From: Elusimicrobiota bacterium
GTDB lineage: Bacteria > Elusimicrobiota > Elusimicrobia > UBA1565
Assembly: GCA_043819795.1 (NCBI GenBank)
Contig: JBDREN010000002.1
Span: forward strand, 1 to 24,616
Length of the DNA stretch: 24,616 nucleotides
Reading direction: 5' to 3'
This document shows, piece after piece, positions 1 to 24,616 of this stretch (within the stretch, counting starts at the first letter, position 1; each line of letters starts with the position of its first letter). The notes below the pieces were generated by a model. It saw only the letters and a program-made list of their open reading frames with translations. It had not been told where the DNA came from and searched no databases. A program made the translations under genes and the position numbers.

Positions 1-543
1 GTCTATCCCGACGACGTCTCTGGGCAGGACGTACTCCAGGTACAGCTGGGGCTGGGGCGTCACGGTGAACGGGGCGTATCCGGTATTCAGGGTCTGCGGG
101 ATCCCGTCGACGGAATAGGAAATCTGCGCCCTGGCCCGATAGCGCATCCCAGTGGGATAGCTTCCGCCCGCTCCCGTGGAGGGGACGATGAGCCAGTGGA
201 TGTCGGCCGTGCTGCCCGCCTGGACCACGCCGCTTCCGTCCAGCGCGTTCGTTCCCGCCAGCTGGGAGACCTTGACGAAGAAGAGGTCTCCTTTGGGGTT
301 GCCCTCCATGTCCTCGATAAAGACGCTGATCGATAGGTCGCTCAACGACGCGGACGTCAGGTTGTTGGTCATCTCCAAGCGCGCGTCGAACCCGAGCCTT
401 TCCAAAGTGACCTTCTGGAGGATCTCGAACTTGACGATCGCGCAGACGGAGGCCAGCTGGGCGTAGGCCAAGCCGGCCAGTCCCAGGCAGGCCAGGCTCG
501 CGGCCAGCAAGCGCCCCGCTTTCCGCGTCAGCGGACGGTCCAT
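1..543 (-). CDS. Secreted protein, 5' part only (181 codons in window, runs off the left edge); putative partner of the giant protein
   Basis: Not in the ORF track because it is truncated. Manual translation from ATG at 543 is open to position 1: MDRPLTRKAGRLLAASLACLGLAGLAYA-QLASVCAIVKFEILQKVTLERLGFDARLEMTNNLTSASLSDLSISVFIEDMEGNPKGDLFFVKVSQLAGTNALDGSGVVQAGSTADIHWLIVPSTGAGGSYPTGMRYRARAQISYSVDGIPQTLNTGYAPFTVTPQPQLYLEYVLPRDVVGID. Basic n-region, hydrophobic core and AYA cleavage site. SD-like AAAGGGG just upstream. Overlaps the rhodanese gene by 16 nt. Confidence 0.9.
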   Translation of the reverse strand, partial: MDRPLTRKAGRLLAASLACLGLAGLAYAQLASVCAIVKFEILQKVTLERLGFDARLEMTNNLTSASLSDLSISVFIEDMEGNPKGDLFFVKVSQLAGTNALDGSGVVQAGSTADIHWLIVPSTGAGGSYPTGMRYRARAQISYSVDGIPQTLNTGYAPFTVTPQPQLYLEYVLPRDVVGID

Positions 544-1289
544 GAGTACCCCTTTTGGATCCATACCCCGAGATCCTCGCCCAATACCGTCACGTCCCCG
601 AACCCCGACTCCACGAGCGTCTTCGCCGCCGTCCTCGCCTTGTCCGGAGAGCGGTGGTAGACGAGGACGGGCGTATCCGTGTCTTTGCCGACGGCGTAGG
701 CGCTGAACTCTTTCAAAGGGATGTTCCTCGCCCGAGGCAGGTGGCCCGCCGAGAACTCCTGCGCGGGCCGGAGATCGATGACGACCGGCCTCTCCTCATG
801 CTCGAGCGCCGACTTCAAATCGCTGCATCCGACGTGCCGGGCCGAGAGGCCCTCCCCCGGCGTTGTCGGGTGCTCCCAGAACTTGAAGGAGGTGGGTAGC
901 CCGGCCGCCTGCCAGCCCATGAAGCCCTCTTTCAAGACGCGCACGTCCTCGTAGCCTCGCTTCAACAGGTCCTTGGCCGCCTTGGCGCTCAGCGGGCATC
1001 CCACTCCGGAGCAGTACAGCGCCAAGACGCGGTCCTTGGGGAGCGGGACCGAATGGATCGCGTCGTGGGGATGGTTGACCGCTCCCTCTATGTGCACCCT
1101 CATATAGTCCTTGGCCGGCCTCACGTCGATGACCATCACCGGCTTCTCGCCTTTCCGCATCGCGAGCAGCTCCTGCGCCGTGACCTCCGGCGCCTGCTCA
1201 GCGAAGGCCAATGAACTCCCCAGCGCCGCGAAGGCCAGCGCGATGAGGACGCGATGTCCGGCGTCAGCGCCACAAATCCCTGAACCCAT
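528..1289 (-). CDS. Exported tandem rhodanese-like domain protein (253 aa)
   Basis: Two rhodanese signatures: VIDVRPAKDYMRVHIEGAVN...LYCSGVGCPLS...GYEDVRVLKEGFMGW and VIDLRPAQEFSAGHLPRARNIP...LVYHRS...GFGDVTVL. N-terminal hydrophobic stretch ending in AFA suggests a Sec signal. Start overlaps the giant gene's end by 26 nt. Confidence 0.92.
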   Translation of the reverse strand: MGSGICGADAGHRVLIALAFAALGSSLAFAEQAPEVTAQELLAMRKGEKPVMVIDVRPAKDYMRVHIEGAVNHPHDAIHSVPLPKDRVLALYCSGVGCPLSAKAAKDLLKRGYEDVRVLKEGFMGWQAAGLPTSFKFWEHPTTPGEGLSARHVGCSDLKSALEHEERPVVIDLRPAQEFSAGHLPRARNIPLKEFSAYAVGKDTDTPVLVYHRSPDKARTAAKTLVESGFGDVTVLGEDLGVWIQKGYSWTVR

Positions 1290-4200
1290 GACCGATACCC
1301 ATCAAGCCCGCGGCAATTTCTTCATAGCTTGCCGGCGAAGCATTAGGGGCGTTAGAGTTGTGTCTTCCTCCACTCAATCCTTTGTGGATCGACGTTCCGT
1401 AAATCTGATCGTAGCACTTGGTGTAGGAATACGCCCCCGTAATGGGGATCGCCACCAGCCCGGTCACGATGCCCGAAAGCGTCTTCAAACCAGGGAGCGC
1501 GTTCTCCGCCGCCAATCCCATCGCTCCCGAATTATTCAGGAAATGGTCCAAGTTGCGTAGCTCAGTGGGGCTGGCGTCGTGGCCCAGGGTTTGCCCTATG
1601 GAATCTTTGGCCATGGATTGCACCGGCGTGTCGACATATGCCCCATCGTCCCCACCCCGGGCCGTTATGACGTCCCCGAGAGCAGCCGACGCGGCGTTAT
1701 TCTTCCCCGCGTACTTTCGTTTTTCGGCGGTGAGTGCCTCGCCCGCGTCCCACAAGGAGGAGTCCCCGACGGCTATGTAGAGTCCCGAGGTATCTTTGTG
1801 GTTGACGGGATCGGATTCCGCATACGCGTAGAGGTTCGTGGAGGCAAAGGCGGGGTCCTTGGATATGAAGCGTCCGAGCTCCGCATCGTAATACCTGGCT
1901 CGCATATAGATCAATCCCGAGTCTTCCTCGTATTCCCGGCCCACGTATGTGAATGGATCGCCCACCGACGAGACGCTGCGGGTGCTGCCGCTGACGGCGT
2001 CTATGAACGTGGGCTTGCCGTAGCTCTCGTACTCCACACGCTCCACGATATTCCCATCGGAGTCGCTCAGGGCCACGACGCTCCCCAGGGCGTCGGTATG
2101 CAGGAAATAGTCGCCGTCGGGGTGATGAAGGATCAGCGGCTCGTCGTGGGATCGGCCGTAGGTCACGTAGAATATATCGATGGACGGTGTCCCGCCGGAG
2201 TCCTGGGTCACCTGCATGGCGACGATGCTCAGGCCGTCGTAGACATAATCCACGGTCTTGCTCAGCGCGCCTAAGGTGACTCTCTTCCGTATCCTTCGGC
2301 TCATGCTGTCGTAGGTGAACTCCGATATGCGGCCGGTCTTCCCGTCCGAAATTCTGGTGAGCCTGTTGCGGGCGTCCCAGGCGTAGGTGACCACGCTTCC
2401 GTCGGCCTTCGAGGTCCTGGAGACCCGGTCCCCCCGCTTATCGTAGGCGTAGTCATAGCGAGCGTCGGAGGTGAGGGCGTTTTCCGTATCGTAGAGGCTC
2501 GAGCTCGAGCGGGGACCGGAGGTCCTGTTGCCGCCCGGATCGTAGGAGAAGGCTTCCTCGAGGGCTTCGACCATTGTGTCGGGCGGGTGCGATGCGCGCG
2601 TGAGGCGCCCCACGACGTCGTAGGAGTATTCGTGGGCCCCGCGGAAGTCCGTCATGGATGTCCGGTTTCCCGAGACGTCGTATCCGTAGGCGAAGGACAA
2701 GACGGAGGCGCCGTTGCGCCGGGTTTCAATCCCGGTCATCCGGGAGTCGGCGTCATAATCGTAGGAGACGGTAATTCCGTTGGACAGGAGGGTCGTCTTC
2801 TTCCGGGACAGGGCGTCGTAGCTGAAGGTCACCGTCTGCCCCAGAGGAGACTCCAAAGAGACCATCCGTCCCATGACGTCGTACTCGTATTGGTAGATCC
2901 CCCAGGGCGTGACCATGGAGGTCATACCGCCGTTCTTGTCGTATGAGTAGCCGAGGTTCACCTGCAGCGAGGCGGCCTTGTTGGTCTCGGTGATGTGGAC
3001 GGGGCGGTTCACCTCGTTGTAGCTGAACTGCGTCTTGGACTGTTCGTCTTCGAGCGTCGCAAGAGTGCCTGCCTCATTATACGATTGGGTGAATGTGGTG
3101 TCCGCGAATGAGGACGAGAGCCTGCGTCCGGCCACGTCATAGGAATAGAGGCTCGTGTATCCATCCGGATCCGTGAGCTGGGTGATCCGGCCGGCGCTGT
3201 CGTAGCTCACGCGCGTTACGTTGCCCGAGGGACTCGTCATCCCCCTATACTTGCCTTCGGCATCGTAGTCGAAGGTCGTCGTGTTCCCATTCGGGTCCTG
3301 GATGGAGCTTGTCAGGAACGTCGGGAGCGTCTCGCAGCTTACGCAGCCCGGCTCGTAAGTGAACCGCGTGGTCGCGCCGTTGGATTCCCGGATATCCGTA
3401 ATGCTTCCGAACTCATTGCGCGTCATGTGCCGGACGCGGCCGGACGGGCTGGTGATTGAGGCGATGCGCCCCAAGCCGTCACGGGTGAATCCAGTCGTCC
3501 GGCTCATAGGGGTGGTGATGCTGGCGAGGTTTCCGTCGGAGTCGAAGCTTCGGGCCGTCACTTCGCCCATTGCGTCCTGCAGGCTGGTCCAGGATCCCGT
3601 TGGCCCGTAGCCCAAGACTTGCGTGGTGCCGTCCGGACGATTGAGCCGCGTCATCCGCCCTTGGGAGTCGTATTCAAAGCGGACCTTGTGGCCCATGGGA
3701 TCGGTCACGGAGGTTACGTTGTCGTCCGCGTCATAGGATGCCTGCGCGGACACCCCGGCGGAGTTCGAAGCCGCCGTGAGCCGTCCACGCTCGTCGTAGA
3801 AGAAGTTCGCTTCGCGGCCCAGGGAGTCCGACATGGAGGTCACGGACCCGCTGGAGTTGTATTGGACCGCCAAGTCCGGGTTGCCGGGAGCGCGGACGCC
3901 GCGGACCATCGTGCCGGCGGGCGTATGGCCCAGGATTAGCTCGGCGGTCGCTCCCATCGGGGTCTGAACGATGGCCTTGCCGTTACCCATCGCGTCGTCC
4001 ATCTGCAGGTCCAGGGACTGGAACCCTTGGGAGCCGCCGACCTCGCTCTTGTTGATGACATAGTCCGCCGAAGGGATGCCCGCGGTCATGGACGCGGAAC
4101 CGCCGCTGAATTCCCGGATGGACCTGCGTTCGGCGGAGCTGATCGTCTCGGATGAAGCCTTGGCGAGGGGGGTGGCCACGTCGACCCCGTACCACTGCTC

Positions 4201-7200
4201 GAACAACGCCGTGTCCACCGCGCCGGATGGGGTGAGCGGCAGGGTGTAGATGGCGTGGGCGTAGGCTCCGGCGGCCGTGGCCTTGCCCAGGGCTTTGATG
4301 TCGGGCGGGCTCTCATAGTCCCAGCTGGTCCGCAATCCCCTGGGGTCGGTCATCTCCGTGACCAGATCCCCAGTCGGCCCCCCGTAGACGAAGCTGTGGT
4401 CGCCTTGCAGGTTCGTGAGGCTGGTCAGCCGCCCGTCCGTGAATACGAACTCCGCCGACCGGTCCGCGAAATCCGTGACGGACCGCAACCGGCCCTCCAA
4501 GTCGTGCTGAAGGGTGTAGAGGGTCCTCCCGGTATCGTCCACTACATTGTCCAATCGTCCGCTGGGATCATACTGGAGCCCGACGGAGTCCCCGCTGCTG
4601 TCGGCGATCTTCGTCAGTCTTCCGGCGCTGTCGTAGAGCAACTCGCCTTCCGGAATGGCCAGGGAATAGCTTCCGTCCGGTTTCTGGGCCAGGTCCGGGG
4701 GAGAGAAAGTCCCGTCATCGTTGCGGTCGAACTGCCACACGTCGCCGCCCGGCGTCTGGGCGATGACGAAAGTCCGCGTGGAGTCCATGACGAAGATCTC
4801 GCGGCGGCTGTCGTTGATGTATCCCTCGACCGAGCGCACGGTGCGCAGGCTTCCCTCGAAGCTGTGACGCCAGCCCTTGCCGAGGCTTCCCGTGGCGTCG
4901 AGGTTGTGGGTGTTGTAGAAATGCGCGAAGTCCAGGGAGAAGCCGTATTTCGGTATGCTTACGTTAAGGTCCCGGAACGTGAGGTTCATGTTCCCCGAGG
5001 TCGGGTCCGTGCCGTCGGCTCCCAGCTTGCAGCCGAACGACAGCGCGATCGGAATGGAGACGCTGGGCGGCATGCTCCTCAGCGCCCTCTTGCCGGCTTT
5101 CTTCAGGAGCTTGCCCAGGTCGTCGAGGCCCAAGCCGAACTCCCCGCAGCTGGTCGGAGCGGGCCGCGCGCCCCCGAGGTCCGGCACGTAGCCGCCGCGC
5201 CACTGGCCCCCGCCGCAGCAGCCCCCGCCGCCCCAATAGCGGCGCCCCCCGCCGCCCCCGCCGCCGCCGCAACTGTCCCCGACCCCGAATGTCACGCTCG
5301 GGCCCGGAACGCTCACCCACGAGCCGGCGATGCAGTGGTAGGTGTACCAGAGGACCATCGTGACCCAGTGGCAGGAGGCGTGGGCGAGCTCGATCCTGTA
5401 AGGGACGTCCACGCTCTGGCCGGGCAGGAGCTCCGGTATCAAGTCCTGCATGAACTGGATGGTCGTGTCGGTGTCGCTCTTGATGTCGAACCGCAGGTCG
5501 TGGGCCTTGACAAGGCCGTGGTTCGTCAGGCGGAGCTGCCCGTACGCCGTCTCTCCCGCGTTGAGCGGGATTTCCAGGAGATTGGGCTCCACGGTCACGA
5601 CGGGGGCGGGGACGTCCGTCTCGTAGGTGACCTCCAGCTTCACGTCGTATTCGTCCTTGATGAGCGTCGGCGTGACGGTGAAGGTTGTGCTCACGAAGGA
5701 CCTGGGCAGGACGTATTCGATCGTCTCGGGGATCCCGGGGATCGCCTCGGCCATCCCCTGGGAGGTGTGGAACCCGGGGGCGGCGATCTGCCATTGGAAC
5801 TTGCCGGCCGGGATCTGGGTGAAGGTCGCGACGCCGTTGAGATCGGCGGGGAGGTTGAAGCTCAGACCGGGGACGTCCAGGCTGGTCAGGGTGACCGTGG
5901 CTCCTTTCACTCCGGCCCTGGTGGCGGAGTTCGAATCGATGATGTGGAAGGTGATGTCCCCTTCCCGGGAGGAGGTGAGTATGACCCCGACGCCCAGGGG
6001 GAAAGAGTCGAGGTTGGCGCTGTCGACGGAGATCCGCTCGTTGTGGGTGCCGGAGGGCAGGTCTTCCGGAGGATTCACGCTGAGGCTTACGCTGAACGAC
6101 TCCCCGGGCGCCAGGTCGCCGATCTCGGTCTCGGAGTGGATGTGGATCCAGGACGCCGTGGGCGGGCCGAGGGAGACGCCGCGCCAGACCTGCGTCCCGA
6201 CGTTGGAGATGACCGAGGTGAGGTTCTTGCTCTGCCCGGCCGCCAGGCTCACCACGAAGCTCTGGGGCTGGACCCGCGGATAGACTTGGCTGGGGACGAG
6301 GTACAGTCTGACTTGGGCCGTCCTTTCGAAGCCGTGGGACTCCCGGACTTGCATGAGGAAAGAGACGCTCCCGGGCGCCTCGGCGTCCCCCCAGGCGCGA
6401 AGCTTCAGCTTCGCCTCGGTCCCGGGCTCGATCGGTGAGAGCAACGTCGAGCTCGCCAGATCCAGGCCCACCAGCCCTTCGGCTTGGCTGTCCAGGAGGG
6501 AGAACGTGACGTCCGTCGGCGTGACGGGCGTTTCGCCCGTGTTGGCCACGCCCACCTCGAAGAGGTAGGTGGTCCCCTTGGCCAGAGTGGCTTCCGGCTG
6601 GGCGGGCGTGATGGCCATCCCCACGATCGCGAACGTGGACATGACCGGGGTGGCGAAGATCCCCGGGTCGACGGCCCACGCGGAATAGACCCCCGCTTCG
6701 CCGGCGGAGGGATGGAAATCGACGAAGTAGGGATACCTGCCGGTCAGGTCGGCGGCCGCGGATGTCGTGGCGAAGTATATCCGGGTGAAGTCGCGGATCG
6801 CGATCCCCACCTTGACTTGGCTGTCGGGAAGAGGGTTGCCGTCCAGATCGGACGCGTAGCCTGTGAACGTGATGGCCTGGCCCTGATCGTAGACGTCCCG
6901 GTCGTGCCGGAGGGTGGCATGGAGGCTGACCGACGACACCAGGACCGTGATGGAATTCGCCAGGCCCGGGCCCGCAAGCCCTCCCTCGCCGGCCATCCCG
7001 GAAACCACGGCTTCGAGGTCGAGCAGGCTGTCGATGGCGATGCTCTCCGGGGTTGCCAGAGCGAGCGGGTCGAAGGCCGCGGCCTGTCCGGCGGGGACGG
7101 AAAGGACCGCTTCGGAGGAGGCCTCCGAGAGGACCATGCCGGCCTGTGTCTTGAGCCGAAGCTTGAGCGCTCCCGCGGGCACGATAAGGGCCGCCGATCC

Positions 7201-19200: not shown

Positions 19201-22200
19201 GAGGACGAGCTCCGTGCCCGGCGGGCCGCTCGCCCGGCTCATGGAGAGCAGCTGCGGCGGGCCCTCCAGCAGGACGTTGTCGAAAGACTCCACGAGAGGG
19301 GAGGAGTAGTACTGCGAGCCTCCGTAGAGCTCGAGCTGAAAGTCTTCGAAGGCGGAAAGGATTTCGGCCGGGTTGCCGTTGCTGTCGCGCGTCAGGTCCA
19401 CGTCCGTCATGACCGCCCGCCCATCAAGCTCGAGGCTCAGGGTCTTGGCGTCGAAGTCCAGGGCTATGTGGATGTTGCGGAACGTGGCGGCGGCGTTTGG
19501 CTCAGCCAGGACCGGAGAGGCCAGCGTGACGCGCTTCAACGTGTGGGGGGAGACGGTCCCCTTGCCGTAGAGGGTCATCACGGTCCTGAGCTCGCCCATG
19601 TCGTTGTTCGTGCCCAGCTCGAGCTGGATGTAGCGGTTCGAAGGGTAATTGTACGTGCCCTCGCGGTCCGCGGCCGCGTCCCGGAAGTAGATGCCCGGGA
19701 CGTAACCCGCCGAGCTGGCTTTCGTCCCGGGTTTCCAGTCGAGGTTCAGATGGTAGACGCCGCCTTTTTTGAAGACTCTTTTCGTGAGGACGGAGGCCGC
19801 CCGCCAGCGGTTGCTGCCGCCCGCGGTCTCGAGCCTCAAGCGGCCCTGGTCCACCTTGATGTAGGCGCTGCTGAATATCTCCGAGGACCATTTGCCGTCG
19901 TCGAGCGCGCCGTCCGGGAAGGATTCGGAGAAAAGCTCGGCGTGCCGCTCGGTGGCCGTGAACAGCCACGGCCTGCTCGCCCGGCCGTCGTCGGCCGTGA
20001 TCACCAGGTCCTGCCGGCCGAGGGGGAGGCCCGGGGGGACGGCACCGACGATCTGCAGGTCCGTCCAGCTCGCGATCTGCATCGGGACCCCGCCGATGGT
20101 CACGGCTCCGTTTCCCTGCTCCACGCCGAAGCCTCGCCCGGTCAAGGTCGCCTGGCGACCGGCGGACCCGCTTCCCGGGCTGAGCCCGCGCAGCTGCGGC
20201 GGGCCTTCCAGCAGGACGTTGTCGAACGACTCGGTCAGGGGGGACGAGTAGAACTGCGCGCCTCCGTAGAGCTCCACGTGGAAATCGCGGATGGACGGGA
20301 GGAAGTCGATGCTGTTGCCGGAGCTGTCCTTGGTCAGGTCGACGCCCGACATGATCGCCTGGCCGTCGAGATAGAGGCTCAGGGTCTTGTTGTCGAAGTC
20401 CAGGGCGATGCGGATGTGGCGGAACACGGCGGACGGGTCGGGATCGGCCGCGATGGGGGGATCCAAGGCGACGGATTTTAGAGACGACTGCGAGCTTGAC
20501 GCCCCCATGCCGTAGAGAGTCAAGGACGTCCTTTGCTGGCCGTAGTCGCCTTGGGTTCCCAAGTCGAGCCGGACGTATCGGCTCGAAGGCGACTGATAGG
20601 TGCCGTCCCGGATCGCGCCGACGTCGCGGAAATAGATGCTCGGGCTCTGGCCCGCCGAGCTGGCCTTGGTCCCCGGTTTCCAGTCCAGGTCCAGGTAGTA
20701 GACGCCTGTCGCCTGGAAGACCTCTTTTGAATATAGGGATATCGCTCGCCACCGGCTGCTTGTCCCCGCTGTCCGGAGCCTCAGGACGCCGTCGGAGACG
20801 TCCGCCGTGCCGGAGCCGAATTTCGCGCTTATCCACTTCGACGCGTCCAGAACCCCGGCGCTGAAGTCGTCGTCGATGAATGGACCGGCGGGGGGGGGCG
20901 GGGTGAGGATGTTGAACGCGTAGGACCGCCTGTTGCCGTCCAGATCGGAGGCCGTGAGCTCGATGCGGTTTGTGTCGGGCCCCGCCGAGGGCGCGAGGTT
21001 CAGGCCCGATACGGTCAGCCGGTGGGGATCGTTCTCGGAGGCCCCGGGCGAGAGCGGATTGAGGGATATATAAGAGGAAGGCACCTCCGTCCAGCCCTGG
21101 CCGCCGTCCACGCTGACGCGCGCCGAGAAGCCGGGCTCGCTTTCATACTCGCGCAGGACCTGCTCTTCGGTCAGGGCCGCGTTCAGGATGCGGATCTCAT
21201 CGATGACCCCGTTCATCATTCGGCCCGCCGTGCCGATCGGATAACGGGCGTCGTAGCCGATCGCGACGACCCCGTCGCCGTCGTGGATCGGGGTGCTGGC
21301 GAAGCCCCAGGTGGAGACGCCGGTCAATACTCCGTTGCGGTAGGCCGCGGCCTGGTTGCCGTCATAGGTCCAGGCCATGTGGTTCCATTCGCCCGGCACC
21401 GTCCCGGTCGTGCACGGCGAGGTCCGCCAGGACCCGCCGACGTTGACATAGAGCATGGATCCGGCGCTCCCGTCGCCGCAGGAGTGGATCAGCCACTCGT
21501 TGACCGCCATGTCGTTGGCGCCGTTGCCCTTGCTCAGCCATGCGTCGGTCCCGTTGGGCTTGTACCAGAACTCGACGGTCAGCTCATAGGCGGGAGTCAG
21601 GCCGGCGGAATCCGGGACATGGACGGCCTGGTCGGCGCCGTTGAAGCTCAACCCCCGGCCGTGGCGGCCCTCCACCCTGGCCGGGAAGTTGACCAGAGTC
21701 CCGTGGTTGCCGTTCCCGGAGGCGTCCTCGACGGCCTCCCCGGAGGCTTCCTCCAGATGCCAGAGGGCGGACGCGCCCTCGATCTCCGGGAAGAGCGCGC
21801 CCGCGTCCGGGGGCAGCCCGCTGCCGGAGTCCTGGACCGTAATCCGGGCCGAGATGCCGTCGCGGCCGGGCAGCGCCGTCGCGGGATCGAGGAAGCTCGC
21901 TCCGTCCGCCGAGACTCCCGGGTCCGATAGGTCCGGCGGGGCGGTATCCGGCGGAGGCGTCAGGATGTCGTAGGAGAAGGAAGCCGTGTTGCCGGCGACG
22001 TCCGCAGCCATGAACTCTATCCGGTTGATGCCGGGCTCGGGCGACGGAGCCAGGGCCAGCCCGGCCGCGGTCAGATAATGAGGATCGGTCGCCGAGGCGG
22101 CTCCCGCGGCGAGCGACAGGCTGAGCTTGGCGGCGGGGACTCTCCTCCAGCTTTCTCCCCCGTCCGTGCTGTAGCGCGCGGAATACGCCGCGCTCTGCTT

Positions 22201-23805
22201 GAGATAGTGCTCGGCGATCTGCTGGGCGGTGGCGGGGTAGGCGAGGACGCGCACCTCATCGAGAAGGCCCATGTAGGGGCCGTAGCCGCTGTAATCGCCG
22301 AAGTAGCCCGAAGGAAAAACATCCCGCCGGTTGCTCGCGAGCCCGGTCTTGACGAAGGCCCCGTTGACGTAGAGGCTGGGTCGCTTGTCGTCGTAGACCA
22401 CCGCGATGTGGGTCCAGCCGACGATGGGCGCGTCGTAGACCAGAGGGGAGGGAAGATAGGAGCTGCCGTGCTCGAAGACGGCGATCCCGTTGGTGCCGAC
22501 CGATATCCCGGCTCCCGCGTCCTGCGACCCGCCGTGGCCCGGCCCGATGGCGTAGCGCTGTCCGCCCGTGCCGGAGATCCCGGAGTTCGCCTCCGAGGTC
22601 GGGTCGCGGGACGTCGACGGGGAGGCCCAGAGCTCTATCGTGAAGCTGTTCGGCGCGGTCGTGAGAAGGCCCATCGTCGTCGCCCGGTCGTCCGAGCCGT
22701 CGAACCGGAGGGATTTCCCGATCCCGCTGAGCGACCAGCTCGTTCCGCCCGCCAGAGCGGCGGCTGGAGCCTTCCCGGAGTCTTCCATCGCGAGGGTCCC
22801 GGCCCCCTCGTCAAAATGCCACAGCCCGACCGTGCCCGGGATGGGCTGGATCGTGTCCTCCGGGTCGACCAGTCCGCTCTCGGCGTCCTGGACGGTGATC
22901 CTGGCGGTGATGTCCGCGGTCGTCTCCAGGGCGGTCCCAGGATCGATGAAGGTCGTCCCGTCCGCGGAGACCTCTGGCGTCTCGAACCGGGGGGCGGTGG
23001 TCTCCGGAGCGCACTTGCCGGCGCCGCCGGCGGATGCGATCGCCTGGATCTCGGCTTGGCTCAGCGCGCGGGCGTAGACCGAGACCTCGTCTAGAAGCCC
23101 CGCGAAGGGCCCGTAGCTGGACGTGTCCCCAAGGACGCCCGAGGCGTACACGGTCCGCCGTTGGCTCGCGAGCCCCGTCTTCACGAGAGTCCCGCCGACA
23201 TAGAGACGGGGCTGCTTGTTCTCATAGACGACGGCGACGTGCGTCCACTCGGAGAGGGGGGCGTCGTAGACCAATAGAGAAGGGAGATAGGATGCGCCGT
23301 GCTCGAAGACGCTGATCCCGTTGGTGCCCACGGAGATCCCGGCCCCCGCGTCTTGCGATCCGCCGTGCCCCGGCGCCATTGCGTAGCGCTGCCCGCTCGT
23401 GCCCGCGGTGCCCGAGACGCTCTCCGGCGTCGGGTTGCGCGTCTGCGCCGGATAGGCCCAGAACTCGACGGTGAAGGTGTTCGCCGCGGTGAGGAGGAGC
23501 TCATGTCCGGCCATCCGGTCGTTGGCGCCGTCGAAGCTGAAGGCGTCCCCGACCTTGCCCGAGGAGAAGCTCGTCCCATTCTCCAGGCTGCCGTCGTAGG
23601 AGCCGGTGAAGTCGCTGGCGTCTCCCTCGGCCCGCCACCAAGCCACCCGGCCGGAAGGCGGCTCGACGCAGTCCGTATCGGCAGCCCGGGCCGTGCCCGG
23701 GCCGGTCATTAAGAAAATAACCGAGAAGGTAAGGAGTAAGCAACGCGCGGCGCTGCTGGGGAGCCGCGACTCAATCTCGTGAGGTCGATCGCTGGTGTCA
23801 GCCAC
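1264..23805 (-). CDS. Giant (7513 aa) secreted multidomain adhesin-like protein ending in an RHS/YD shell and C-terminal effector domain
   Basis: Uninterrupted 22.5-kb ORF with recognisable LamG, IPT/TIG, Ig-like, FN3, carboxypeptidase-regulatory-like, YD-repeat and RHS core motifs. GTG start followed by a signal peptide (RCLLLTFSVIFLMTGPGTARA-ADTDC). The exact start codon is less certain than the gene. Confidence 0.97.
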   Translation of the reverse strand: MADTSDRPHEIESRLPSSAARCLLLTFSVIFLMTGPGTARAADTDCVEPPSGRVAWWRAEGDASDFTGSYDGSLENGTSFSSGKVGDAFSFDGANDRMAGHELLLTAANTFTVEFWAYPAQTRNPTPESVSGTAGTSGQRYAMAPGHGGSQDAGAGISVGTNGISVFEHGASYLPSLLVYDAPLSEWTHVAVVYENKQPRLYVGGTLVKTGLASQRRTVYASGVLGDTSSYGPFAGLLDEVSVYARALSQAEIQAIASAGGAGKCAPETTAPRFETPEVSADGTTFIDPGTALETTADITARITVQDAESGLVDPEDTIQPIPGTVGLWHFDEGAGTLAMEDSGKAPAAALAGGTSWSLSGIGKSLRFDGSDDRATTMGLLTTAPNSFTIELWASPSTSRDPTSEANSGISGTGGQRYAIGPGHGGSQDAGAGISVGTNGIAVFEHGSSYLPSPLVYDAPIVGWTHIAVVYDDKRPSLYVNGAFVKTGLASNRRDVFPSGYFGDYSGYGPYMGLLDEVRVLAYPATAQQIAEHYLKQSAAYSARYSTDGGESWRRVPAAKLSLSLAAGAASATDPHYLTAAGLALAPSPEPGINRIEFMAADVAGNTASFSYDILTPPPDTAPPDLSDPGVSADGASFLDPATALPGRDGISARITVQDSGSGLPPDAGALFPEIEGASALWHLEEASGEAVEDASGNGNHGTLVNFPARVEGRHGRGLSFNGADQAVHVPDSAGLTPAYELTVEFWYKPNGTDAWLSKGNGANDMAVNEWLIHSCGDGSAGSMLYVNVGGSWRTSPCTTGTVPGEWNHMAWTYDGNQAAAYRNGVLTGVSTWGFASTPIHDGDGVVAIGYDARYPIGTAGRMMNGVIDEIRILNAALTEEQVLREYESEPGFSARVSVDGGQGWTEVPSSYISLNPLSPGASENDPHRLTVSGLNLAPSAGPDTNRIELTASDLDGNRRSYAFNILTPPPPAGPFIDDDFSAGVLDASKWISAKFGSGTADVSDGVLRLRTAGTSSRWRAISLYSKEVFQATGVYYLDLDWKPGTKASSAGQSPSIYFRDVGAIRDGTYQSPSSRYVRLDLGTQGDYGQQRTSLTLYGMGASSSQSSLKSVALDPPIAADPDPSAVFRHIRIALDFDNKTLSLYLDGQAIMSGVDLTKDSSGNSIDFLPSIRDFHVELYGGAQFYSSPLTESFDNVLLEGPPQLRGLSPGSGSAGRQATLTGRGFGVEQGNGAVTIGGVPMQIASWTDLQIVGAVPPGLPLGRQDLVITADDGRASRPWLFTATERHAELFSESFPDGALDDGKWSSEIFSSAYIKVDQGRLRLETAGGSNRWRAASVLTKRVFKKGGVYHLNLDWKPGTKASSAGYVPGIYFRDAAADREGTYNYPSNRYIQLELGTNNDMGELRTVMTLYGKGTVSPHTLKRVTLASPVLAEPNAAATFRNIHIALDFDAKTLSLELDGRAVMTDVDLTRDSNGNPAEILSAFEDFQLELYGGSQYYSSPLVESFDNVLLEGPPQLLSMSRASGPPGTELVLEGHGFGDAQGNGSVTLDAAPLTVASWTDTSITAVVPPGTPEGRADIAVADHAGHSTVKWLFTVTEELAELHADDFSGESLDGVKWSSVYTGSAAAEVEEGRLRLKTINPNNNWRGVSVFPRRAFDKAGVYHVNLEWKPGTKASSAGRIPGIFFRDAAGSRDASLLYPMDRYIRLDLGSSGDNGQKRTVLRLYGRGTGSEYTLRTVTLPTPVLADPADAAAFHLIHIGLDLDALTFTMEMDGREIMTGVDLTRDYNGNPVDFLSAIGDFHLELYGGGQYYTSSLVESFDNVRVDGNSQIQSVSRGSGAPNTELAVTGSGFGDAQGSGYFRLGAHDLSVLSWSGTSILARVPPGTPEGVYDVTIKPDTGPEMGGFRFTVTPPGRVLVYDDFEGPALDGNVWRTAEYWTASAEIVDGSLSLKAGGACCGYRGVAAYPVPQLRQQGVYHLNLDWKPGRKSDGNGRIPAIFLRAVGASRNSSYQSPDERYIRLDLGLNNDTGSTRTKLNLYGQGAPGATLSTIKTVTLDSPILTAPDQNAVFHQVHIAFDADNKTFSLDLDGQPVMSDVDLTHDSGGTPIGFLDKIGNFQMELYGGSQYSNSSLVETFDNVILEGPPQLHSISRGSGAWGTALTLRGIGFGDSQGSGFVSLGGNNLPVLIWSDGAVAVSIPQGTALGPQALVLKGDIGPELGGFKFTVTDPLPMLLADDFEGGGLDADAWKTVEPGSTSVGVSSGSLEIRAAGPCCSYRGVAAYGSPMFLPGGVYHLNLDWKPGHKNDGNGRIPAIYFRAVATSRDYNFQDPMERFIRLDLGTASDTGSFRTELSLYGRGTSTLHLLKKVPISLLLPTAPSPDATTHQIHIALDIDNKTLSMDLDGQPMMTDVDLTHDSGGTAISFLDKLGIFQLEFYGGSQYGTSSLVEAFDNVVMEGPPQLHAASRGSGPAGTELTLTGNGFGETRGSGYVRLGGNDLTVLSWSNDALLVRVPEGTPLGPQELAVKVALGPEVGGFRFTVTPRLPVLLSDDFEAGVLDGSVWRKVEAGGTVVEVSDGSLDLKTARSCCQYRGVAAYGRPLLRGKGVYHLNLNWLPGRKDDGNGRIPSIYFRAVAASRDYNFQDPTERFIRLDLGTASDTGSFRTELSLYGRGTSTIHLLKKVPISLLLPTAPSPDATVHQIHIALDFDDKTFSFDLDGRAMMTGVDLTRDSNGNPVGFLDKIGEFQLELYGGSQYATSSLVETFDNVLLEGPPQLRSVRPDIGPPGTQVEITGVGFGDSQGTGKVSLGAGLLSVASWSDTAITASLPPGTPAGTGNLSVVTDAGQASRGWLLTATGALLTVLEDAFEGAALDASKWETMTFGSASVQVADGELKFNLDGPCCQWRGAAAYSKSQFNQQGVYHFSLDWSPDTKTDANGLAPGIYFRSPDSGRHGTYQSPNDRYLRLDLGYSGDTGPRRTEMTLYGRGEPNTTQQTLKKKTLEIPIPTVDDPDVSSRQVHIALDFENKTFSLDIDGEAIMTNVDLTKNSDGGTIGFLGTWTDFHMEIFGGAQKNTSAMIESFDNASLRLADISIPVAQITSHTENDFVSGLVTVTGTAMDEGGISGTEFFIDGEGQGAAEPPEFSFAWDTLARDGEEPLYPDGPHAVYLQARDQVGNVGASPAVSLKVDNTPPVTSLSPAPNGSNGWYRSPMPNLTLSAADGSGSGAGEVRFTLDEDPETVSTGASAQPAVPEGIHVLSYFAVDRLGNQETAKTTTLNIDLQAPTLPENPRTTLVVERRADLAWDASADAEGPAPSGTALYRVSRRVYDGGTGFSVIADTPTLAYSNTTGLVLGETYEYQVRAVDAAGNASAPAELTVFVPDLTPPELSDVSATLSEDETRIDVAWDTNELATGQVAMGTDPWVYTTTTPATVDYQDIEHLGRGHLTAVEGLEPHTTYYFRAFSIDAFGNQSSSEEFTIITDTHPPTLAITGPEAGANTSTAVTIEFTVTDDLTPEGSIEVKDDQGHDAPPFTFTEEGQKTVTLTATDAAGNSASASVTFTIDKTGPSRIADLNVTVQRPASAEADLAWTSPSDALSAVAGYALKSHSEPLDDSNWDDAAPHAAPSPSEPGTEESHTVTDLPEDVAYLAIRSQDEVGNLSPVSNSVLYDPVPPEAAITAPAPGTVLTRPSTATATASDSQGIARVDFLVDGEAAGTDAAAPYEFYFDIRDFLDGTHSLMARALDSFGNAVEATVPVTISYAPPPAPAILSPEEGFLTATAVIDVSGTAEPGNTVTVFVDGSAAGSASVQGDGTFVVLGISLPADGAVALTARLSDSRGTSAPSAAVNGTLDTAAPGPPVQPVAASLTGGRIRLDWGLPEGETPAAYKVYRSNQEAALTEGATPPPSLLVHQGPDTSYTDAPPHDGLFFYGAVSLDAASNASGLSEIAPGVSDRATPSASIRLTQSTPPLGPGEHPLELTLSEALTLPPALTITPQGQDAVTIEIEQTTTLVWVGTLTVTPSMATGTAEFGFQGQDFAGNVGTALTSGQSAGIDTRGPLGAIAFPAAVSSGDFPLSLSLDEPAAGVPTLSFTPSGRAAVPVALSASGPDNRDWTGSVAVDETTGDGPADFNYSAEDALGNLSATLSGGAAQFIIDTVPPGPPTLVQAVAGQGGAIGISWEAPDAGEMPSSYLVFRDGAQLSPAVTPSPDGSGDYTDMPSDGAHDYEVASVDLAGNRTKSAAVSATTDATPPDAPTDLAAQLDTSVPGTPRVGLSFKASADSEGFNVYRSLTPIGSTAGMTPVLAAQAAGPPDAQGFRGLADIPVQDDTYFYAVTALDHAGNESPASNGSAGVLFDKTPPTAVTDLRVVASTPTSTLTLFWTAPSDGLAGVHSYRIRYGATAALTPAAWEDAAEIQQSIVPKAPGSAESLAITSLPLDHHLYFFNIRTLDSVGNLASLSNPVAFSSIPPGLTIWSPAEGAVISRPVTISAGATDAVGVSDFSFAVDGETLASPQSSPHFRWDTLPYPDGAHTLGVTAFNTFGFSSTVDRPVVLSYVPPPAPMIQSPHSPFQSLTGAVDLSGSAEAHIRVRLYLDGIALESDTFADAYGRFSFPDIGVPAGTHVFSVFAVDRSTSAASNAVTVAYSEDLPGQPEQLQAQSQPAGKVSLAWDEPDSGADVGYYRLYRSTSPLSLASGGTPPPAHRLPPMISGTSHVDRPSVDGLYYYAVSASDFAGREGVISSTIAALSDRAAPTAVISVGSSPPLGVGSTPVVLDLSESLQSAPLLTITPHDSFPIPIVLSAQTPTEWTGTLHIQSFNPSGTAVFAFAGVDLVGNQGQTISSGGTVEILTQGPEGELSLTPASPYQAGTVVQIALALSTTPAQPPSLGLLTPAGDSVPVSLSGSTTSYAGSFTVTTEMGDGTGGFAYSAADSLGNVGQTLTGTTFYFIDTTPPDPPRFMTATPRPAGAVQLNWSSPVGEEAARYNLYRADDLIFSKGGLTPAQTEILPNPDHSGSFTDHPPAEQAYYYAVTAMDAAGNEGNVSGSARADSVSTPPPPPAGLTASINAFGQIELSWVSGGGSTSRFLLYRSTRPLPSLSGLTPIPAASPYVDVLTRNGTYYYRATALDIAGNESPPSDETHANYNGAPPAITVLGVEDGRFYRTDVSPVFYAEDPNLVPSSVSATVDEESFVSGSTVSAEGEHAMTVFAANTGGLTASEDLRFTIDKTPPAISVTEVAQGATYYAAVHATFGAADANLMSVAAVLDGEAYSSGSSIATAGRHTLVVTAQDKAGNSAESTLAFRLMTPPPAPLDMAVQVSSRGAALSWTAPPYAETLSGYNVYRNGVRLNQTPIPQTSFEDFAFPRDQGFHAYRVAGLDGLRQEGPSSTATIVPVEVLLGPSGIAGGDESMRLTRGYFDRIVLALTRPDSDPVNALFGPAAIELPDISGATLSDCETGWTFFGGGQSRDLSTVCAIPPELPNPALVRVRLVQGSEPGTSVTRILELPAAVREPPSAGLTLLPGTFSPNAHTQVTVRLSNQGSAALIVPAGALKLRLKTQAGMVLSEASSEAVLSVPAGQAAAFDPLALATPESIAIDSLLDLEAVVSGMAGEGGLAGPGLANSITVLVSSVSLHATLRHDRDVYDQGQAITFTGYASDLDGNPLPDSQVKVGIAIRDFTRIYFATTSAAADLTGRYPYFVDFHPSAGEAGVYSAWAVDPGIFATPVMSTFAIVGMAITPAQPEATLAKGTTYLFEVGVANTGETPVTPTDVTFSLLDSQAEGLVGLDLASSTLLSPIEPGTEAKLKLRAWGDAEAPGSVSFLMQVRESHGFERTAQVRLYLVPSQVYPRVQPQSFVVSLAAGQSKNLTSVISNVGTQVWRGVSLGPPTASWIHIHSETEIGDLAPGESFSVSLSVNPPEDLPSGTHNERISVDSANLDSFPLGVGVILTSSREGDITFHIIDSNSATRAGVKGATVTLTSLDVPGLSFNLPADLNGVATFTQIPAGKFQWQIAAPGFHTSQGMAEAIPGIPETIEYVLPRSFVSTTFTVTPTLIKDEYDVKLEVTYETDVPAPVVTVEPNLLEIPLNAGETAYGQLRLTNHGLVKAHDLRFDIKSDTDTTIQFMQDLIPELLPGQSVDVPYRIELAHASCHWVTMVLWYTYHCIAGSWVSVPGPSVTFGVGDSCGGGGGGGGRRYWGGGGCCGGGQWRGGYVPDLGGARPAPTSCGEFGLGLDDLGKLLKKAGKRALRSMPPSVSIPIALSFGCKLGADGTDPTSGNMNLTFRDLNVSIPKYGFSLDFAHFYNTHNLDATGSLGKGWRHSFEGSLRTVRSVEGYINDSRREIFVMDSTRTFVIAQTPGGDVWQFDRNDDGTFSPPDLAQKPDGSYSLAIPEGELLYDSAGRLTKIADSSGDSVGLQYDPSGRLDNVVDDTGRTLYTLQHDLEGRLRSVTDFADRSAEFVFTDGRLTSLTNLQGDHSFVYGGPTGDLVTEMTDPRGLRTSWDYESPPDIKALGKATAAGAYAHAIYTLPLTPSGAVDTALFEQWYGVDVATPLAKASSETISSAERRSIREFSGGSASMTAGIPSADYVINKSEVGGSQGFQSLDLQMDDAMGNGKAIVQTPMGATAELILGHTPAGTMVRGVRAPGNPDLAVQYNSSGSVTSMSDSLGREANFFYDERGRLTAASNSAGVSAQASYDADDNVTSVTDPMGHKVRFEYDSQGRMTRLNRPDGTTQVLGYGPTGSWTSLQDAMGEVTARSFDSDGNLASITTPMSRTTGFTRDGLGRIASITSPSGRVRHMTRNEFGSITDIRESNGATTRFTYEPGCVSCETLPTFLTSSIQDPNGNTTTFDYDAEGKYRGMTSPSGNVTRVSYDSAGRITQLTDPDGYTSLYSYDVAGRRLSSSFADTTFTQSYNEAGTLATLEDEQSKTQFSYNEVNRPVHITETNKAASLQVNLGYSYDKNGGMTSMVTPWGIYQYEYDVMGRMVSLESPLGQTVTFSYDALSRKKTTLLSNGITVSYDYDADSRMTGIETRRNGASVLSFAYGYDVSGNRTSMTDFRGAHEYSYDVVGRLTRASHPPDTMVEALEEAFSYDPGGNRTSGPRSSSSLYDTENALTSDARYDYAYDKRGDRVSRTSKADGSVVTYAWDARNRLTRISDGKTGRISEFTYDSMSRRIRKRVTLGALSKTVDYVYDGLSIVAMQVTQDSGGTPSIDIFYVTYGRSHDEPLILHHPDGDYFLHTDALGSVVALSDSDGNIVERVEYESYGKPTFIDAVSGSTRSVSSVGDPFTYVGREYEEDSGLIYMRARYYDAELGRFISKDPAFASTNLYAYAESDPVNHKDTSGLYIAVGDSSLWDAGEALTAEKRKYAGKNNAASAALGDVITARGGDDGAYVDTPVQSMAKDSIGQTLGHDASPTELRNLDHFLNNSGAMGLAAENALPGLKTLSGIVTGLVAIPITGAYSYTKCYDQIYGTSIHKGLSGGRHNSNAPNASPASYEEIAAGLMGIGHGFRDLWR
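1267..1779 (-). other. RHS C-terminal extension (residues 7343-7513, 171 aa), putative toxin/effector of unrecognised family
   Basis: Follows directly after DPVNHKDTSGL. Ala/Gly-rich, one hydrophobic segment (LSGIVTGLVAIPITGAYSY), lower GC than the rest of the gene. Confidence 0.75.
1780..2045 (-). other. RHS repeat-associated core domain with aspartyl autoprotease motif
   Basis: YESYG...FTYVGREYEEDSGLIYMRARYYDAELGRFISKDP...NLYAYAESDPVNHKDTSGL matches the RHS core consensus (RxxxxDP...PxxxxDPxG, here DTSG). Confidence 0.95.
2046..5010 (-). repeat. DUF6531-like domain plus YD/RHS repeats (RHS shell)
   Basis: Begins DPTSGNMNLTFRDL...LDFAHFYN...LGKGWRHSFE, typical of the DUF6531-type RHS start, then many YDxxGRL units (YDSAGRLT, YDPSGRLD, YDERGRLT, YDSQGRMT, YDVSGNRT, WDARNRLT). 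Confidence 0.92.
5011..5373 (-). other. Cys/Gly-rich linker between stalk and RHS shell
   Basis: CHWVTMVLWYTYHC...SCGGGGGGGGRRYWGGGGCCGGGQWRGG...TSCGEFGLGLDDLGKLLKKAGKRALRS...FGC: 7 Cys and a Gly8 run. Confidence 0.8.
5374..7600 (-). other. Beta-sandwich region with CARDB/NEW3-like domains, a carboxypeptidase-regulatory-like domain (about 5704-5961) and a TYETDVPAPVV...TNHGL module
   Basis: TVRLSNQGSA, VGVANTGET, SVISNVG...IGDLAPGESFSVSLSVNPP motifs; GVKGATVTL...DLNGVATFTQIPAGKFQWQIAAPGF. Boundaries approximate. Confidence 0.7.
7601..14530 (-). other. Ig-like/FN3 stalk (more than 20 domains)
   Basis: Recurrent DxTPP...D.AGN units, FN3-type LxWxxP...YxVYR...YxYxVxAxD motifs and a DNTPPVTSL...NGWYRS...YFAVDRLGNQE domain. 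Confidence 0.88.
8386..13119 (-). repeat. Tandem duplication of an ~790-aa, 8-domain block (copy A 10747-13119, copy B 8386-10746)
   Basis: Same motif order in both copies: DKTGPSRIADL/DKTPPTAVTDL, ISYAPPPAP/LSYVPPPAP, SDRATP/SDRAAP, DTRGP/LTQGP, IDTVPPGPP/IDTTPPDPP, ALDHAGNESPASN/ALDIAGNESPPSD. Start-to-start offset is 2373 nt. Confidence 0.88.
14533..20886 (-). repeat. Array of 7 jelly-roll-like domains (~230 aa) alternating with 6 IPT/TIG domains; period 942-948 nt
   Basis: Each unit starts with a DDF...LD..W-like motif (near 20863, 19918, 18976, 18034, 17086, 16144, 15202), contains GVYHLNLDWKPG.K, IRLDLG, IHIALD and LELYGG.QY, and ends E.FDNV. IPT units show LTLTG.GFG...G.V.LG...SW.D. 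Confidence 0.93.
21140..21785 (-). other. LamG-like jelly-roll domain 3
   Basis: LWHLEEASG...DASGNGNHGTL...LTVEFW...WNHMAWTYDG...NGVIDEIRILNAALT. Confidence 0.9.
22200..22845 (-). other. LamG-like jelly-roll domain 2
   Basis: GLWHFDEGAG...FTIELW...WTHIAVVYDD...LYVNG...GLLDEVRV. Confidence 0.9.
23011..23670 (-). other. LamG-like jelly-roll domain 1, bracketed by a Cys pair
   Basis: CVEPPSGRVAWWRAEGDASD...FTVEFW...WTHVAVVY...GLLDEVSVYARALSQAEI...GAGKC. Confidence 0.9.
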
Positions 23806-24081: not shown

Positions 24082-24214
24082 GGAGTCCCCCATGACTGAA
24101 CGGTGTAAGCGCCGCAGGGCAGGTTTACGGCGTTAAAACGGCGACAGCGGTGCTGGGACGGAGTTCCTTATGACTGGAAGGTGTAAGCGCCGCAAGGCGG
24201 GCTTGCGGCGCTGA
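24082..24214. repeat. Two direct copies of a 55-bp hairpin-containing element (24082-24136 and 24160-24214)
   Basis: 44/55 identical by manual alignment, offset 78 nt, shared core GGTGTAAGCGCCGCA. Confidence 0.85.
24186..24212 (-). terminator. GC-rich stem-loop immediately after the upstream gene's stop; possible terminator or mRNA stabiliser
   Basis: AGCGCCGCAAG-gcggg-CTTGCGGCGCT is a perfect 11-bp stem, 2 nt after the TAA. No real U-tract follows, so intrinsic termination is uncertain. Confidence 0.45.
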
Positions 24215-24616
24215 TTAACGCACAACGGCGAACTTGCCGGCCTTGCGGATGCTTGCTTCGCCCGACTTCTCGGCCACGACCGTATAGAGGTATACCCCGC
24301 TCGGGATGCGGCCGCTCCACGCGTACTCGTAGGCGTACTTGGGGCCGCTGCCGTCGTTGACGACGGGCGGCGTGCCTTCCAGGGTCGTCTGATGCACCTG
24401 CTGGCCGGCGACGTTGTAGATCCGGATCGTCACCTTATCGGCGATGCCCACGGCCAAGTGGATCGTCGGCGCGGCCCCGCCCACCGCGGGGTTGGGGAAC
24501 ACGTAGAGGTCGCGCAGCGCGAAGGCCGGGTCGGCCCCGGCCGCGGCCGCGACCTTGCCTTTGCCCTTGCCCTTCTCATCACCGGCGCCGGGCTCCTCGT
24601 CGGCCAGATCGTCCGG
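24215..24616 (-). CDS. 3' end (133 aa) of a protein with a T9SS-type-A/FlgD-Ig-like C-terminal domain; start lies beyond the window
   Basis: Frame is open to the window edge: PDDLADEEPGAGDEKGKGKGKVAAAAGADPAFALRDLYVFPNPAVGGAAPTIHLAVGIADKVTIRIYNVAGQQV...YAWSGRIPSGVYLYTVVA...GKFAVVR. The YVFPNP, IYNVAG and SGVY motifs and terminal K.AVVR are CTD hallmarks. The listed 24502 start is an internal GTG. Confidence 0.88.
   Translation of the reverse strand, partial: PDDLADEEPGAGDEKGKGKGKVAAAAGADPAFALRDLYVFPNPAVGGAAPTIHLAVGIADKVTIRIYNVAGQQVHQTTLEGTPPVVNDGSGPKYAYEYAWSGRIPSGVYLYTVVAEKSGEASIRKAGKFAVVR

Follow-up and report, generated by a model that had tools for sequence, protein, structure and literature searches.

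The 24,616-nucleotide stretch analysed here (the window) is the entire contig C2 of an Elusimicrobiota genome of 4.99 Mb (66.8% GC, 90% complete), and it carries a three-gene operon that is real and conserved across several bacterial phyla. The operon encodes a giant protein, a tandem rhodanese and a partner protein. Judged from its sequence, the giant works like a Sec-exported RHS polymorphic toxin, with none of the T6SS, Tc, TANFOR or teneurin-like traits that were tested. The observations suggest a polymorphic toxin system built on an undescribed split-domain clasp. In the reading that we favour, and hold to be somewhat probable, a conserved module of the giant (MOD) and a domain of the partner (PN) clasp each other, the partner supplies a tag or anchor in trans, and a likely toxin sits at the free C-terminus of the giant. 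A type IX cargo has to carry a tag at its C-terminus and a polymorphic toxin has to keep that end free, and the work on TANFOR toxins left open how both could be had at once. A partner lending its tag through a shared domain would, if true, solve this conflict and make it testable. The clasp would also represent a new extracellular docking pair, possibly of use as a protein-engineering tag, and would account for giant genes of the little-known phylum Elusimicrobiota.

The giant gene covers positions 1264–23,805 on the minus strand, which also carries the other window genes and domains described below. It encodes 7513 aa with a signal-peptide-like start, without a sorting domain and, by hydropathy, without a transmembrane segment. 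The tandem rhodanese gene (528–1289) encodes 253 aa with two Pfam Rhodanese domains. The partner gene is cut by the contig end; its N-terminal part, with the PN domain, occupies positions 1–543 and is 96% identical to a paralog on contig C118. The partner start was placed at the ATG at position 543, an alternative ATG being present at 564. With the former, the gene overlaps noted in a sequence-only reading of the window were recovered (26 nt for giant/rhodanese and 16 nt for rhodanese/partner), and so were the signal-peptide-like N-termini of the giant, the rhodanese and the partner. These N-termini, judged by a simple hydropathy check rather than by a signal-peptide predictor, show an 11-residue hydrophobic stretch (mean Kyte-Doolittle 2.3–2.8) followed by an AxA-like site. 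The giant/rhodanese overlap was bridged by a single 151-nt contig of a public run, a weak confirmation as the sample may be merely related. Neither end of C2 overlapped another contig of the genome. At positions 24,215–24,616, upstream of the giant, a C-terminal stub overlooked in the first reading belongs to a gene cut by the contig end and bears a type IX type-A-like sorting domain (28.5 bits against TIGR04183, cut-off 23). It may represent the partner of a tandem unit located ahead of this one, an arrangement also found on contig C160. Behind this upstream gene, positions 24,089–24,193 hold two copies of a short REP-like intergenic repeat, the 14-base core of which occurred 9 times on 8 contigs, with longer look-alikes on other contigs.

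The domain order read earlier from the letters, about 6200 aa of binding and stalk domains followed by an RHS shell and a C-terminal cargo, was confirmed, with Pfam and NCBIfam matches up to the end of the shell. Three LamG/concanavalin-A-like domains come first (aa ~46–890, positions 21,136–23,670; PF13385 in three stretches). Seven lectin-like beta-sandwich units then alternate with six TIG domains (aa ~971–3087, positions 14,545–20,895), as delimited by self-BLAST, motif counts and PF01833; Atlas searches with the lectin-like units led only to unnamed or TIG/lectin proteins. The Ig/FN3 stalk (aa ~3100–5560, positions 7126–14,508) is composed of Big_7, Big_13, fn3 and OmpL47-type domains according to Pfam and NCBIfam. 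Binding and stalk domains represent more than 80% of the protein. MOD, a conserved module of about 610 aa (aa 5568–6180, positions 5266–7104) recognised by alignments and domain matches, contains CARDB, NEW3 and carboxypeptidase-regulatory-like Ig domains and then a docking hairpin (aa 6036–6068, positions 5602–5700), which ends in TYETDVPAP and is predicted to form the centre of the contact with the partner. A Cys/Gly-rich linker (positions 5029–5373), with 7 of the 25 cysteines of the giant, leads from MOD to the RHS shell and is the site of natural gene breaks in relatives. No family model spanned either MOD or PN, no solved structure matched PN, and against solved structures MOD gave only short Ig-type matches, none of them over the docking hairpin. 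An alpha-2-macroglobulin-like nature of MOD, suggested by a weak match to a bacterial protein (E 0.07), was rejected when the match was gone with a deeper alignment.

Five paralogous loci at 33–96% identity exist in this genome, contigs break there and public reads cover small pieces only, a situation in which an assembly could join paralogous giant genes into a chimera. Such an origin of the giant is nevertheless very improbable, as the gene is a single clean frame of 22.5 kb with even codon bias and the same architecture is seen in many independent genomes, isolates included; at most the repeat count could be off. The frame has no internal stop, and GC3 lies between 0.83 and 0.93 up to aa 7000 and is 0.69 in the tip.

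The paralogous loci comprise five PN genes, four MOD giants and one cut RHS tail. On C118 the tip, the rhodanese (86%) and the partner of C2 are repeated, and on C38 the gene order is the same as on C2. C160 and C38 overlap by 141 nt, which yields the tandem giant, partner, giant-RHS, rhodanese, partner. The C15 and C160 giants have no RHS and terminate in a Cys-rich domain, and C160 is also devoid of a rhodanese; the complete partners at these two loci have the same C-terminal sorting domain as the stub upstream of the C2 giant. RHS is missing from two of the five paralogous loci and from several relatives, so that the platform is more general than RHS delivery. The C15 giant (C15:2–30,040) is at least 10,012 aa long, with 11 LamG-like domains before its non-RHS Cys-rich end. 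In the C118 locus (L027, 1113–9108) the partner paralog shifts frame near position 6400 and is then truncated by the contig end. The type IX-like sorting domain recurs genome-wide at the ends of about 20 frames, many of them 70–94% identical, and several contigs break at it.

The complex prediction combined MOD aa 5627–6180 of the window with PN residues 3–415 of the C118 paralog, a stand-in 96% identical over the 154 partner residues present in the window. An ipSAE of 0.89 was obtained in three out of three runs, the best of three controls giving 0.00. The predicted complex showed about 350 contacts, with an agreement between runs of at least 96% and a partner pLDDT of at least 87. Among solved complexes 116 of 157 attain the ipSAE mark, and among mismatched pairs 2 of 215, rates that apply only roughly with the present alignments; the two halves of a split gene generally score well in tests of this kind. 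In the best-placed contacts of the model, the hairpin ending TYETDVPAP runs antiparallel to the VCAxVKxEIxQxxTLER hairpin of PN (VCAIVKFEILQKVTLERLGFDARL, positions 358–456). A further PN strand (241–255), encoded beyond the end of the window, also lies at the predicted interface. Recall of a solved complex by the predictor is unlikely because no solved structure covers either hairpin. PN modelled alone was a stack of beta-sandwiches (pLDDT 80.6), for which searches returned only generic FN3/Ig matches. The MOD and PN hairpins very probably form a tight two-chain clasp, a shared beta-domain.

MOD and PN also occur in one chain. Among the best 36 of 66 MOD matches (the 30 weakest being left out, and all with lengths of 1114–3180 only), 19 carried PN 90–560 aa downstream of MOD; 12 others were split-type, 2 partial and 3 weak. 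The segment inserted between the two is variable and often Cys-rich. In the fusions the export or anchoring signal (RTX repeats, dockerin or Bacteroidota-style tails) comes after PN, as in the Nostoc PCC 7120 protein WP_044523664.1, which ends in RTX repeats; the phyla of the fused forms were deduced from such C-terminal features, except for Nostoc and one Verrucomicrobia record. No RHS was found in the 19 fusions, a form that the length limit could hide. In the PN tree, which is unrooted, 15 of the 16 fused forms cluster with a support of 1.0 and one stands apart. This same-chain occurrence in other bacteria indicates that MOD and PN are probably the two halves of a split domain, previously undescribed. 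Several of the inserts (P0027–P0048) have Cys-flanked hydrophobic helices, and even the fused forms may carry a variable payload in the insert.

PN was found at 47 loci among species genomes of Elusimicrobia, Nitrospirae, Geobacter, Geothermobacter, Desulfobacterales, Cystobacter, Archangium, Planctomycetales, Verrucomicrobia, Thiohalocapsa and Armatimonadota. At 34 of them a rhodanese gene is found no more than 10 kb from PN (18 upstream and 16 downstream, many contigs being short). MOD or RHS was located upstream of PN at 17 of the 24 loci having at least 9 kb of upstream sequence; five of the remaining seven were examined, and in all five MOD lay some 20 kb downstream in the same orientation. 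In 251 Elusimicrobiota genomes, PN was present in 12, MOD in 14 and both in 11, two MOD-only matches being partial. PN and MOD occurred in an identical set of 9 among 301 genomes of the phylum of Geothermobacter, and in an identical set of 5 among 72,556 plasmids; in the class of Thiohalocapsa, searched with the PN profile only, 8 of 380 genomes had PN. MOD and PN distances correlate over 16 loci (r 0.89). Kin are not independent and neighbours are inherited together, so the co-occurrence counts and this correlation show linkage rather than binding, and co-inheritance of neighbours alone explains the latter. The clasp is present in the cultured non-pathogens Methylomonas koyamae, Eleftheria terrae, Cystobacter fuscus and Geothermobacter hydrogeniphilus and, in fused form, in Nostoc PCC 7120; among Elusimicrobiota, no free-living cultured host of the operon came to light. 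The co-occurrence of the MOD motif, the PN motif, RHS and rhodanese in other genomes, on which the sequence-only reading had staked the unit, thus survived the check, with synteny kept across phyla.

Concerning export, that reading had seen the giant as lacking PAAR, VgrG, TPS, RTX and sorting domains, and Pfam and NCBIfam scans agreed. It had also named neighbouring T6SS or Tc genes as the competing route; in the 90%-complete genome the TssC, VgrG and PAAR models (PF05943, TIGR01646 and PF05488) gave no match, with positive controls, and the TcB (SpvB) component gave none either. VgrG exists in two of five other hosts checked, not adjoining the locus as far as seen. Across Elusimicrobiota, a type IX-like sorting domain is found on 10 of 10 complete partners and on 0 of 12 complete giants, each set of duplicates being taken as one. 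Another partner in this phylum is interrupted by an N-run, the sorting domain following just downstream. For the copy in the window, where the partner C-terminus lies beyond the contig end and the C118 paralog is both frameshifted and incomplete, the sorting domain is extrapolated from relatives. The genome has six PorV-like matches over the cut-off and one SprA-like gene under it. That the partner supplies the sorting tag in trans for export of the giant is, in our estimate, an evenly balanced proposition.

Several secretins are also encoded in the genome and could offer the giant a different exit. The clasp may be real and form only after export, the chains leaving separately by a type II-like or other route and the partner acting as a surface dock or second adhesin arm in a cohesin-dockerin-like manner. 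We consider this rather unlikely. It would fit the Eleftheria locus, in which a set of type II-like genes includes one for a secretin-cohesin protein, and the Nitrospirota-type operons, to which cohesin-like and dockerin-like proteins are added. Outside Elusimicrobiota, moreover, PN has no type IX tag and either ends in another single-copy domain or sits in a type II-like cluster, and a pair of about 800 kDa with a folded RHS shell would be a demanding cargo. Against it, the export signal of the fused forms follows PN and serves MOD in cis, the tag is distributed without exception between partners and giants in Elusimicrobiota, and an interlocked sheet would form more easily during folding. 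The SprA model found no match in five non-Elusimicrobiota PN genomes, where the control was silent too. The C-terminal domain of the partners from these other phyla was considered as a general sorting tag and rejected, its profile being single-copy in five of five genomes. At L056, L061 and 13 similar loci, the last 190 aa of the PN protein constitute an undescribed conserved two-repeat domain ending in W-x-P. Between PN and the giant, the Nitrospirota/Deltaproteobacteria operons (L086–L093) have additional genes for a D-Ala-D-Ala carboxypeptidase, for an FN3 protein whose end is dockerin-like, for a protein of 1500–2000 aa that starts with a cohesin, and for a conserved 460-aa protein, the last being also present in Eleftheria.

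The DUF6531 and RHS/YD shell starts at aa ~6260 (positions 1783–5028), with PF05593, PF20148 (DUF6531), TIGR01643 and TIGR03696 (Rhs_assc_core) over their cut-offs. The core ends in PVNHKDTSGL, a variant of PxxxxDPxG in which the proline is replaced. Asp7317 and Asp7338, which we take to have roles in RHS self-cleavage, are present, and PVNHKDTSG is likely the self-cleavage site. The RHS part is encoded by a gene of its own, which has a signal-like start, in Cystobacter, Eleftheria, Geothermobacter and others; this points to Sec export of the shell and hints that the Cys-rich tail bears a further docking site. The variable tip that follows (172 aa, positions 1267–1782) has conserved ELR[DN]LDH and SxxSxxE..G motifs and was modelled as all-helical (pLDDT 81.6). 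Five further homologs of the tip were found; it had no Pfam family, no Atlas match and no stand-alone homolog in a word-indexed search. At related loci the tips (n = 25) are nearly all mutually unrelated. Two are nucleases over the Pfam cut-off, four have weak matches to envelope enzymes (NlpC/P60, M15 peptidase, zinc phospholipase C and colicin M) and 19 have no toxin-like Pfam match. No immunity gene was found at C2, C118 or C38; at C2 and C118 the tip and the rhodanese gene overlap, and at C38 a gap of 24 nt lies between them.

We consider a toxin function of the tip in this copy to be fairly likely. The absence of an immunity gene from three RHS loci of the genome, the C15 and C160 giants ending without RHS, the many tips without a toxin-like match and the preponderance of binding and stalk domains could instead reflect a non-toxic adhesin or recognition receptor, its RHS shell and tip being structural or signalling as in animal teneurins and its variability serving kin or surface recognition. 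This is quite improbable given that related loci have WHH/colicin-type and EHHH nuclease tips with Hint domains, that relatives have orphan RHS-tip cassettes, small genes of low GC following the tip, and immunity-like genes, among them an ankyrin gene, and that the tip has a lower GC3 and swaps between close paralogs. At L089 (5990–10,290), the giant is followed by repeated pairs of a small lipoprotein-like gene and a larger gene with His-rich motifs, which resemble orphan effector cassettes and had no informative Pfam match.

The fold search with the tip gave unrelated helical proteins (best Z 6.8) and nothing above noise, which by itself excludes no family. The lipocone PSS1 (9b4f) ranked 33rd (Z 4.6, rmsd 3.8, 72 aligned residues). 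In this noise-level match, model residues 74–172 lie on 9b4f residues 166–239 and, if the alignment is ungapped, His80 falls on the catalytic H172 (roles of H172 and D221 as given in the accessible text of PMC11882778). The lipocone superfamily is characterised by a four-helix cone with His on H2, Glu on H3 and Asp on H4; the histidine and an acidic H4 residue are conserved across the tip homologs. The accessible text on lipocone toxins (Burroughs et al. 2025, PMC12419801) describes a ClaspCone/CapCone clade with which the tip shares xD four residues before His, SxxSxx before the acidic residue and a late Gly. Toxins of this kind act outside the cell and some have no immunity gene, interspecies toxins often being without one (PMC12419801, same text). 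The tip differs from lipocones by the lack of an Asn four residues after the acidic one, of the H3 Glu and, in the model, of a beta-hairpin clasp. A lipocone-like lipid-targeting effector is a doubtful assignment, though conceivable.

In the rhodanese, the first active-site loop is CxxxxC (C93 and C98, nt 996–1013), and the second domain has no loop cysteine, with Asp/His instead. C93 is invariant in 11 of 11 aligned rhodaneses, Cys98 being the second cysteine. Among the 34 linked rhodaneses, the first active loop contains CxxxxC in 16, and these are all the loci with the Elusimicrobia-type order; another 15 have no loop cysteine and end in CxxC, and 3 (partial frames) have neither. That a pair of cysteines is retained in two different ways suggests a thiol chemistry acting on the Cys-rich junction, and a disulfide helper is a tentative assignment that we place somewhat below even. 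A chaperone role is equally open, since the Eleftheria and Methylomonas proteins have neither two-Cys motif and C160 has no rhodanese.

The surface-displayed, long-reach RHS apparatus proposed in the sequence-only reading remains the best interpretation; what it lacked was a mechanism, now offered by the predicted partner binding and the partner-borne sorting domain. Receptor targeting, a use in antagonism or predation and the rhodanese as a maturation factor stay candidate features of that reading. In the model that we propose, the giant, the rhodanese and the partner would cross the inner membrane by Sec, as their N-termini indicate. The MOD and PN hairpins would zip into one shared beta-domain, and in the periplasm the two-Cys-loop rhodanese may set disulfides in, or fold, the Cys-rich junction, which is the weakest step. 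The type IX-like C-terminal domain of the partner would then carry or tether the pair via SprA-like/PorV-like machinery. The lectin-like domains on the long N-terminal arm would bind the target surface. The RHS shell, by analogy with its family, would cut itself at DTSG and keep the tip until release. The tip probably acts on the exterior of cells that are not kin, possibly with envelope lipids as its target, and the lack of an immunity gene would agree with this. A wider version, to which we give slightly less than an even chance, makes MOD/PN a universal split-domain clasp in at least eight phyla, where a gene cut frees the C-terminus for an RHS-caged toxin, the type IX-like tag acts in trans, and a new contact-dependent, long-reach toxin display has a dedicated periplasmic rhodanese foldase.

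WapA is a Sec-exported RHS polymorphic toxin. The present giant resembles this group, the 'T2SS' class of Zhang et al. 2012 (PMC3482391, accessible text), in its signal peptide, RHS shell, variable tip and self-cleavage-type motif, and in the orphan cassettes and immunity-like genes of its relatives. It differs by the 6200-aa arm, the obligate MOD-PN pair, the linked rhodanese and the lack of an immunity gene; rhodanese, laminin G and fibronectin are unmentioned in that text. The TANFOR toxins of Bacteroidetes, in the available portion of Jana et al. 2020 (PMC7073777), are large signal-peptide FN3 proteins with variable toxin ends that adjoin type IX cargo genes, type IX export being hypothesised without a mechanism. 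The system described here is found in different phyla and has an RHS shell and a predicted physical clasp as the route of tag lending; the TANFOR model, assumed to be in the library, gave no match in the NCBIfam scan of the giant at E 0.01. Bacterial teneurin-like proteins (PMC13018210, in the part accessible; PDB 9ifo and 9pt5) are likewise Sec-exported surface YD-shell toxins with no obvious delivery machine. They have lipoprotein or S-layer anchors in cis and nearly all have immunity genes according to the same text. The similarity of the giant to 9ifo and 9pt5 is confined to the shell, itself more similar to T6SS Rhs cores (E 3e-50 versus 6e-30), and no NHL match indicating a teneurin superfold before the shell was found in the giant with Pfam. 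The operon is not described in the accessible text of a giant-gene survey (10.1101/2023.11.21.568195), and the literature searched, mostly outside subscription journals, gave no account of the operon or of the MOD-PN pair.

The gspG-linked Rhs proteins of Xanthomonas and Ralstonia (10.1101/2025.05.08.652813) lie by type II pseudopilin genes, as in Eleftheria, and these families may overlap with the Eleftheria type; the part of that text available names no MOD, PN or rhodanese. On the Eleftheria terrae plasmid (L097, 23,903–35,657), the type II-like cluster contains the secretin-cohesin fusion, a rhodanese gene and a transglutaminase-domain gene, the latter two being present also in Methylomonas.
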